Shown here: in pieces, positions 1,500-2,462 of the stretch
Layout: every line of letters starts with the position of its first letter
How positions within the stretch are numbered: the first letter of the stretch is position 1
DNA from: a virus
Taxonomy: Duplodnaviria; Heunggongvirae; Uroviricota; Caudoviricetes
Virus record (IMG/VR): IMGVR_UViG_2713896783_000030
DNA length: 5,073 nt
Strand: one strand, 5' to 3'
The notes under the pieces: model-generated
Told to the model about the DNA's origin: nothing
What the model saw: only the letters and a program-made list of their open reading frames with translations
The model's database searches: none
Made by a program: the position numbers and the translations under genes

Positions 1500-2462
1500 T
1501 CACCCCCTGAATCCCGGCGGTATTTCAGTGTCCGGTTCAGAAATGTGATTCACGCAACGCTGCGCGGGCGAACGCCCCAGGCGGATAACCAGTTCATCCC
1601 ATTTTTCCCGGAGTTTTGCCGGACTCATGATGTTTTTTACCCAGAACGAATCCCGCTGGAGACGCCCAAACATTTCACAAATTTGTCTGTGAGTTCTGCC
1701 ATCCAGCATCCGCATTGTCCGCACGTCATTGGCCCATGCAGTCCAGTTGGGTTCTTTCGGTCTCGTGATCTCGCCATCATCGCTGGCCGCCTGCTCGTAA
1801 AGACTCACGATTCGTCCCCAGATCCACTGTGCGCACACCAAATCTTCCTGACTTCCCCACTGGCGTTTTTTCGCACTGAACACAACCGCGTCAGGGTGTC
1901 GGGTTAAAAAATTCTGTTCAGCCGTCTGCGGGTCCGGTTGCGAAGCGTCCGGACAAGAAGATCTTTTATCTGACGGATCAGGTTTTAATACTGACGGATC
2001 GGGGTCAATCATCGCCCCCCTAATCGGCAGTTTGTTATCAACAGTTGATCCATCAAAATTTGACGGGTCAACCGTTGAGGGGGCAATATTTGACGGGTCA
2101 ACTGTTAACGGGTCATTTTTTGCCGGGCTAATTTTTCTTTTCGGTTTATATGACTCACGCGCCGCCGCAGCAGCTGCTTCGAGTTTTTCCACATTAAGCC
2201 GATAGATATTGCTTACATTACGCCCACCGACCTTACGCTCTTCCTTCGTCAGCCAGCCCTCTTTCGCCAGTTCTGCAATAGCCGATTTCACTGTGGATTC
2301 ACTTCTTGCACCGATCTGACGCCGGATAGTTTCAATGGCAGGCCATGACACGCCCTCGTCATTGCTGTAGTCTGCAAGACGGGCCATAACCGCCACCCTG
2401 GATAAGATCATGCCGGTGAAGGCGCACCCTTCCCAGACAAGACCATGAAGCTTGCTGCTCAT
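1500..2462 (-). CDS. Replication initiator: N-terminal winged-helix DNA-binding domain, low-complexity linker, C-terminal DnaT-like domain (lambda O analog)
   Basis: Long minus ORF. The ATG at 2462 (MSSKLHGL...) is preferred over the GTG at 2477 because GGGGG lies 4 nt upstream. N-terminus ILSRVAVMARLADYSNDEGVSWPAIETIRRQIGARSESTVKSAIAELAKEGWL is HTH-like. The C-terminus ends SEPDTEIPPGFRG, matching the C-terminal end of E. coli primosomal protein DnaT as recalled ([13 protein letters not shown]). Directly upstream of and co-oriented with the DnaC-like gene. Confidence 0.8.
   Translation of the reverse strand: MSSKLHGLVWEGCAFTGMILSRVAVMARLADYSNDEGVSWPAIETIRRQIGARSESTVKSAIAELAKEGWLTKEERKVGGRNVSNIYRLNVEKLEAAAAAARESYKPKRKISPAKNDPLTVDPSNIAPSTVDPSNFDGSTVDNKLPIRGAMIDPDPSVLKPDPSDKRSSCPDASQPDPQTAEQNFLTRHPDAVVFSAKKRQWGSQEDLVCAQWIWGRIVSLYEQAASDDGEITRPKEPNWTAWANDVRTMRMLDGRTHRQICEMFGRLQRDSFWVKNIMSPAKLREKWDELVIRLGRSPAQRCVNHISEPDTEIPPGFRG
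1959..2152. repeat. Iteron array plus AT-rich stretch inside the initiator gene: putative prophage replication origin
   Basis: Core GACGG(A/G)TC at 1971-1978, 1992-1999, 2062-2069 and 2092-2099, plus AACGGGTC at 2107-2114. Longer units ATTTGACGGGTCAAC(C/T)GTT repeat at 2058-2076 and 2088-2106. An inverted copy GATCCATC lies at 2047-2054. Followed by the AT-rich stretch CATTTTTTGCCGGGCTAATTTTTCTTTTCGGTTTATATGA. Four GATC sites in 1959-2050. The repeats appear in the protein as TVDPSN and DPDPS repeats. Confidence 0.6.

Follow-up and report, generated by a model that had tools for sequence, protein, structure and literature searches.

Lambdoid phages carry their replication origin inside the initiator gene, which is a textbook principle; in lambda the iterons are 19 bp long and lie roughly two helical turns apart. 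In ori-lambda, the iterons and an AT-rich tract occupy the middle of gene O, and iteron mutations that are neutral for the protein abolish replication (PMC7466680). We analysed a 5,073-bp stretch of Caudoviricetes DNA (IMG/VR record IMGVR_UViG_2713896783_000030; this whole stretch is hereafter the window), the initiator-gene part of which is 100% identical to a chromosomal prophage in many Escherichia coli O157:H7 genomes. Positions 1957–2131 of the window very probably constitute the cis-acting replication origin of this O157:H7 lambdoid prophage, embedded in the stretch of its own initiator gene that codes for the linker. An earlier note on the window had proposed an iteron-type origin embedded in that gene, a proposal supported here by boxes that occur in both orientations, by covariation of the repeats with the N-terminal domain of the initiator (N-domain), by frozen synonymous sites and by the confinement of the boxes to the gene. 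The principal interpretation of the earlier note is right, and ordinary in kind, since an in-gene origin is expected for lambdoid phages.

The likeness to ori-lambda, including that of Shiga toxin (Stx) phages such as 933W, begins with position: in both cases the origin, proposed here, occupies a mid-gene place in the initiator, flanked by a DNA-binding N-domain and a loader-recruiting C-terminal domain (C-domain) (PMC7466680; PMC6022878). As in lambda, several dyad-symmetric initiator sites, putative here, are followed in gene orientation by an AT-rich tract; the whole belongs to the early-right operon, with the loader gene next downstream, and 'N-domain plus origin' forms one specificity module. 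The earlier note had drawn the parallel to ori-lambda, and in gene orientation N-domain, boxes, AT-rich block and C-domain do follow one another in the lambda order. Unlike lambda, the initiator here matches HTH_36 and not the lambda O Pfam family, and its boxes are 12 bp long, follow a 15-bp period and occur in both orientations. Additional boxes with GATC lie in the AT-rich block, the loader is of the DnaC type and not lambda P, and the initiator ends in a DnaT-like tail.

Origins under Dam and SeqA control offer a second comparison. There are 11 GATC sites in oriC and 5 in P1 oriR, and the bridging range of SeqA covers GATC spacings of 21–24 bp, which is the spacing of the conserved pair in this family. 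Both oriC and P1 oriR are precedents for GATC in the unwinding region, while in Vibrio cholerae oriII every site contains GATC and methylation is required for RctB binding (PMC2865523). Like oriC and P1 oriR, the present locus has GATC clustered in the AT-rich part adjoining the initiator sites; unlike them, it has only two or three conserved GATC and is without DnaA boxes. As in oriII, with its RctB 11- and 12-mers and the nearest precedent in this respect, GATC occurs inside tandem (here putative) initiator sites; unlike oriII, it is found only in two or three distal boxes and one array box, most array boxes reading GAC-CC. Origins of Gram-positive phages (SPP1 gene 38 oriL, TP901-1, A2) combine a DnaD-like or winged-helix initiator N-domain with in-gene repeats that serve as the origin. 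This likeness was checked here solely through a weak DnaD_N match and PHROG matches to 'DnaD-like' and 'replisome organizer', and the hosts, repeat sequences and loader partner differ.

The features on which the following description relies are, with domain limits of the initiator drawn from Pfam, alignments and mosaic joints:

1500–2462, minus strand: replication initiator gene, 320 amino acids, RefSeq WP_000095669.1 ('helix-turn-helix domain-containing protein'), from the open reading frame and annotated start.
2163–2462, minus strand: N-terminal winged-helix-type DNA-binding domain, amino acids 1–100, from HTH_36 and a weak DnaD_N match.
2117–2152, unstranded: AT-rich stretch named by the earlier note, 63–70% A+T, encoding the basic peptide YKPKRKISPAKN.
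2045–2116, unstranded: five-box array (proposed iterons), with boxes at 2045, 2060, 2075, 2090 and 2105 and an exact 15-bp period.
2030–2041 and 2120–2131, unstranded: degenerate boxes on either side of the array.
2047–2050, unstranded: fourth GATC, in the inverted array box, present in E. coli variants and not in the other genera of the window's clade.
2010–2044, unstranded: spacer from array to distal block with a G/C-rich core (CCCCCC at 2015–2020), from sequence and stability profile.
1957–2009, unstranded: distal block, with GATC boxes at 1970–1981 and 1992–2003 (22 bp apart), an overlapping box at 1998–2009 and AT-rich flanks.
1938–1957, unstranded: mosaic joint between the 'N-domain plus origin' module and the C-domain module, from the divergence of E. 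coli variants.
1503–1565, minus strand: C-terminal tail of the initiator, AQRCVNHISEPDTEIPPGFRG, its last 21 residues, from phmmer against PDB chains.
753–1493, minus strand: DnaC-type helicase-loader gene directly downstream of the initiator, from Pfam, NCBIfam and PHROG.

All repeats and GATC sites fall at about amino acids 104–168, in the linker-coding part where the earlier note had placed them; in gene direction, the N-domain (amino acids 1–100) is followed by the boxes (114–143), the GATC/AT-rich block (152–168) and the C-domain. Five to six copies of a GACGG(A/G)TC core had been claimed, and four exact copies (1972, 1993, 2062 and 2092) together with two that have one mismatch (2107 on the plus strand and 2047 on the minus strand) are present. 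Matches to GACGGRTC with at most one mismatch number 12 in the whole window against 5.9 expected, a count reached by 4 of 200 shuffles, and half of them (6/12) fall inside 143 bp. Two near-identical 19-bp units were found as described, at 2058–2076 (ATTTGACGGGTCAACCGTT) and 2088–2106 (ATTTGACGGGTCAACTGTT), which differ at a single one of their 19 positions and are offset by 30 bp. The 8-bp core exists, but the real unit of repetition is a 12-bp near-palindromic box, TTGACGGGTCAA (TTGAC-SS-GTCAA; TTGACCCGTCAA in gene orientation), that recurs with a 15-bp period. With up to three mismatches allowed, 13 box matches occur versus 4.4 expected, and none of 200 shuffles reached 13. The box at 2045 (TTGATGGATCAA in gene orientation) is inverted relative to the other array boxes. 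A large imperfect palindrome spans 2040–2106 (33-nucleotide arms, 76% complementary, centre 2073), and both single strands of the repeat region fold better than shuffles (z = −2.6 and −3.3); because the boxes are tandem palindromes, neither property was counted as independent evidence.

Within 17 kb of prophage, five of the six box matches sit in the 72-bp array, and boxes are confined to the initiator gene. Such boxes could be initiator-binding sites that serve regulation (autoregulation, titration, handcuffing or incompatibility), with DNA opening and helicase loading taking place elsewhere. Iteron arrays outside the minimal origin exert negative control in P1 and in V. cholerae oriII (PMC2865523), and the AT-rich segments here are weak, but the same 17 kb hold no second box cluster, a frozen AT-rich block adjoins the array, the arrangement follows ori-lambda, and N-domain and repeats move as one module; we consider a purely regulatory role unlikely.

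Because a 15-bp period keeps the reading frame, the repeats translate into xDPSx units, and a comparison with relatives was needed to separate a DNA site from a peptide repeat. The comparison set consisted of E. coli variants, phage relatives and 80 loci (one genome per species, Enterobacterales); about 75 relatives across Enterobacterales stand behind the argument for a DNA site, and codon use was compared in 50 non-redundant relatives, less than 90% identical in the DNA coding for the N-domain. Every relative with the HTH_36-type N-domain of this initiator has an in-frame 15-bp array straight after that domain. In the clade of the window (E. coli, Erwinia, Mixta, Edwardsiella and Morganella), the box occurs in both orientations within a single 15-bp register; nine genes together hold 31 boxes in the forward and 16 in the reverse orientation. 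The same 12-bp site consequently yields different peptides: as TTGACCCCTCAA it is translated into IDPS, and as the exact reverse complement, TTGAGGGGTCAA, into VEGS. The commoner clade has TCTGAC-nnn-TCAAAA as its unit, with a free middle codon (Pro, Ala, Thr, Gly, Val or Arg) between fixed flanks. Of the serine codons, TCA makes up 52% and TCT 33% in the origin part, compared with 20% and 12% elsewhere in the same genes. Among E. coli variants that are 88–94% identical overall, the array is nearly 100% kept, with sharp divergence directly after the origin.

These observations bear on the possibility that the repeats merely reflect tandem duplication within a flexible peptide linker (xDPSx or SDxSK units) and have no function as DNA in cis. 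Such an origin of the repeats would fit their in-frame period, the low complexity of the peptide and the variable number of core-like units, which ranges from three to nine per relative, so that box number varies in nature; one E. coli variant (NZ_OZ392456.1; L003 about 1690–1700, corresponding to window positions of about 2102–2116) lacks exactly one 15-bp unit. A peptide repeat would not be expected to keep one 12-bp site in two orientations with two translations, to vary the middle codon between fixed flanking bases, to use TCA or TCT for 85% of the serines of the origin part versus 32% elsewhere, or to freeze synonymous sites in the distal block, and the 23-bp repeats of a sister family (below) are out of frame. 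The orientations, free middle codon, serine bias and frozen synonymous sites argue for repeats conserved as DNA beyond the needs of the protein, and we regard a mere peptide duplication as highly improbable.

The distal block is conserved throughout the family. Every relative carries GGGGATCCGTCAGTAAAnTCAAnnnnnGATCC(A/G)TCAGATAAAAA downstream of the array in gene orientation, corresponding to window positions 2003–1962 on the minus strand. Across the 50 non-redundant relatives, the first Asp codon of the block is GAT in 50/50, Pro is CCG in 49/50, Ser is TCA in 43/43, Val is GTA in 45/46, the next Ser is TCA in 44/44 and the second Asp is GAT in 42/42; by contrast, at 49 conserved N-domain residues the commonest codon averages 52%. 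The block averages 65% A+T in these 50 relatives versus 48% for the genes. A core, GAYCCRTCA, is common to the block and the array boxes, and the block probably holds further initiator sites; we propose that it is a second set of such sites combined with the unwinding region. By eye, the distal block contains no convincing DnaA box (5/9 positions) or IHF site (one mismatch in the core).

The AT-rich stretch that the earlier note had placed after the repeats, at 2116–2152, exists, but it is modest and is not conserved as DNA in relatives. Its duplex stability signal lies about 2.3 standard deviations above the window mean, no more extreme than those of 1957–1995 or 2028–2065, and intergenic regions exceed it in AT-rich instability. 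In relatives, the Lys-rich peptide of 2116–2152 stays basic while its DNA differs, and the commoner clade is without the stretch; its AT-richness is probably a by-product of Lys codons. On the opposite side of the array, which in gene orientation is the lambda-like side, lies the conserved AT-rich block (1957–2009). Both flanks are about 2 standard deviations less stable than the mean, and the low-stability zone at 1957–1995 is the only AT-rich flank conserved as DNA.

The origin ends close to a recombination joint. E. coli variants split sharply just downstream of CCGGACG, and many E. coli genomes match window positions 1502–1967 only; these hybrids have a different N-domain and different repeats. 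A sister type (L007 1499–2464, L008 1497–2462 and L011 1369–2334; phage mEp460 and many E. coli prophages) combines a near-identical C-domain with an unrelated N-domain, and at the same gene position it has five GGTCAAAATG repeats with a 23–24-bp period, out of frame. Genes of the mEp460 type differ in the distal block and share sequence only from about AAAAAGAC.TCT.GTCCGGA onward. Repeat type thus covaries with the N-terminal DNA-binding domain, and the pair is, as far as sequence comparison goes, a classical lambdoid 'N-domain plus origin' specificity module. That the conserved block is chiefly a recombination 'linker' for lambdoid module exchange and not a replication element is very unlikely, because the joint (about 1938–1957), although at the downstream edge of the block, lies downstream of it and not within it, the block occurs with a single N-domain family and differs in the mEp460 type, and recombination alone would not freeze each synonymous site over 50 lineages; a linker role and origin function could also both hold at once. 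In the sister type, AT-rich TACAGAGAATA repeats come after the GGTCAAAATG array, and the two together make up another putative origin within an initiator gene.

From the anatomy of the locus, its conservation as DNA, the covariation of repeats and N-domain and the homologies of the proteins, we infer a course of initiator binding, unwinding and helicase recruitment. Dimers of the N-terminal winged-helix domain would bind the 12-bp boxes TTGAC-SS-GTCAA (family-wide core GAYnCRTCA), occupying five or six boxes on the 15-bp period and two or three distal GATC boxes about 22 bp apart. The resulting nucleoprotein complex would destabilize the neighbouring AT-rich distal block at 1957–1995, on the side of the ori-lambda AT tract in gene orientation. 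The C-terminal domain with its DnaT-like tail, together with the adjacent DnaC-type loader, would then supply the melted region with host DnaB. Since the early-right transcript runs across the origin, its synthesis may help firing, as in lambda.

Several points weigh against this interpretation. With a period of 15 bp, adjacent sites face almost opposite sides of the helix, an uncommon geometry for iterons, and some boxes may stay unoccupied at any one time. The AT-rich segments are modest (63–70% A+T, about 2 standard deviations). As the period is in frame, part of the repetition could reflect duplication of peptide units, and common descent and horizontal transfer inflate some of the conservation seen between species. 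The counterpart of the window in NZ_AP018488.1 is a lambdoid prophage in which integrase and exonuclease are disrupted, and the origin of such a defective O157:H7 prophage might never fire. In the literature searched, no experimental report of initiator binding, unwinding or autonomous replication was found for this family. Among the supporting points, Sp4 and Sp10 of O157 Sakai, which have DnaC-type loaders, replicate after induction with mitomycin C, and Sp12 is unable to excise (PMC2669165).

The initiator contains Pfam HTH_36 at amino acids 30–76 (27.8 bits) and a weak, sub-threshold DnaD_N match, and its N-domain identity is 54–78% over the 80 Enterobacterales loci. It matches PHROG 391, 'replication initiation O-like', with E = 7e-115, and PHROG also returns 'DnaD-like' and 'replisome organizer'; a Pfam scan with E up to 0.01 gave no match to the lambda O family (Phage_rep_O), and 'O-like' is a label of PHROG or of annotators only. 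The C-terminal tail AQRCVNHISEPDTEIPPGFRG is identical at about 15 of 21 positions to the extreme C-terminus of E. coli DnaT (residues 159–179; phmmer; 2ru8, 6aep and 9zbt_D), and its motif D..IP.GFR is invariant in all compared relatives, whatever the type of C-domain or neighbouring gene. This invariance speaks for a docking peptide, common to the relatives, that would engage a replication factor of the host, and the tail may be a host-mimicking peptide that ties the origin to the helicase-loading machinery of the host; in the part of the recent work on preprimosome structures available to us, the C-terminal tail of DnaT is given no role (PMC13377028). The loader matches Pfam IstB_IS21 (1.5e-19), NCBIfam PRK12377 (500 bits) and PHROG 50, 'DnaC-like helicase loader'; against the DnaC equivalog it scores 309 bits, under the cut-off of 357 bits.

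The GATC sites require a separate assessment. Four GATC within about 90 bp had been reported, and they are present at 1960, 1976, 1997 and 2047, spanning 91 bp. The earlier note had called this far above chance, which overstates it, as the clustering in this window alone is marginal: under a first-order Markov model of the whole window, P = 0.042 for at least four in any 92-nucleotide stretch, and about 23% of synonymous-codon shuffles that keep the protein contain at least four, owing to the many Asp-Pro, Asp-Gly-Ser and Arg-Ser runs in the peptide. Among the 50 non-redundant relatives, 50/50 keep the first distal GATC and 42/50 the second, even though a change to GAC would leave the protein as it is, and the pair is spaced by 24 bp in 37/50 relatives and by 21 bp in the window. 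The third GATC (AGATCT, 1960) is kept in all examined members of the window clade. Across the family, the origin part has 10.3 GATC per kb and the remainder of the gene 3.6 per kb. Freezing extends over the entire block and is not limited to GATC, so the GATC sites are not separable as the selected feature.

In 26 of 66 relatives, an adenine methylase gene directly follows the initiator (alignment A4; PF05869 Dam in 21 and MT-A70 in 5); other genes in this place are lambda-P-like (7), PerC-like (9) and IstB/DnaC-like (1). Downstream neighbours were located in relatives as follows:

L010 2484–3293: downstream-neighbour gene of the phage relative vB_EcoS-733R5, a D12-class methylase at the same place.
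L012 2352–3239: downstream-neighbour gene.
L013 2370–3251: downstream-neighbour gene.

The association of an adjacent methylase with an origin whose GATC is invariant is a suggestive hint of a link to methylation. Dam/SeqA control, as put forward in the earlier note, is plausible as a hypothesis, two of the four GATC sites being kept family-wide. As the proposed unwinding region has its invariant GATC pair within the putative distal initiator boxes, binding or firing might require full methylation. Gating of the origin by adenine methylation, through either such an RctB-like requirement or the sequestering of hemimethylated sites by SeqA, is a possibility that we put forward only tentatively and hold to be doubtful. 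If methylation gating were true, a phage with an adjacent methylase could methylate its own origin faster than the host does.

In the literature on lambdoid iterons, SfIV/SfII, phiP27, replication modules and Dam/GATC at phage origins, we found no description of this origin, and earlier in-silico notes are possible. Relative to that literature, 12-bp boxes in both orientations on a 15-bp period, a frozen GATC block, a frequent adjacent methylase and a DnaT-like tail were not found described. The initiator gene has matches in 2232 of 5426 complete E. coli genomes and relatives in about 75 other species, and the replication module is present in serotype-converting Shigella phages and in prophages of enterohaemorrhagic E. 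coli. The present work maps, at the level of sequence, the probable origin of a replication module that enterobacterial prophages carry very commonly. This map accounts for a gene that recombines exactly at the end of its origin, and it offers a testable tie between Dam methylation and prophage replication in pathogens with virulence genes amplified by prophage induction.

A search for a natural minimal replicon gave only lambdoid early regions with this initiator family in the form of circular records of 15–16 kb, three of which are entered as 'plasmids' and have no typed replicon; they are weak evidence for replication. Two of them, L094 (NZ_CP148542.1) and L095 (OR902858.1), are made up solely of lambdoid early-region genes, the initiator included, and have a lambda-dv-like look. 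The whole L094 record continues through Q to the lysis genes. Apparent homopolymer errors break the initiator frame in L094, and an assembly artefact is possible.

Rac oriJ was considered as a direct comparator and rejected, as ydaU, at the initiator position, belongs to an unrelated family (DUF1376). In E. coli K-12, Rac ydaU (L002 4472–4563) has mid-gene AACAGATGTTCAA repeats spaced 33, 33 and 12 bp apart, which may mark the location of the Rac origin.

A scan of 1400–3400 for promoters and terminators found none within the repeat region, and an Rfam scan of the whole window with E up to 1 gave only two chance-level matches, both outside that region. On the minus strand, the gene order is Cro/YdaS-like, YdaT-like, initiator and DnaC-like loader. 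The two genes upstream of the initiator are:

2874–3176, minus strand: Cro/YdaS-like gene.
2485–2877, minus strand: YdaT-like gene, broken by a masked run of N.

The 50 masked N lie at 2725–2774 inside the YdaT-like gene, and the matching RefSeq copy is intact at 426 bp. A PaaR2-like regulator followed by PaaA2 antitoxin and ParE2 toxin genes (3274–4137, plus strand) occupies the usual position of the lambdoid repressor, divergent from the Cro-like gene.

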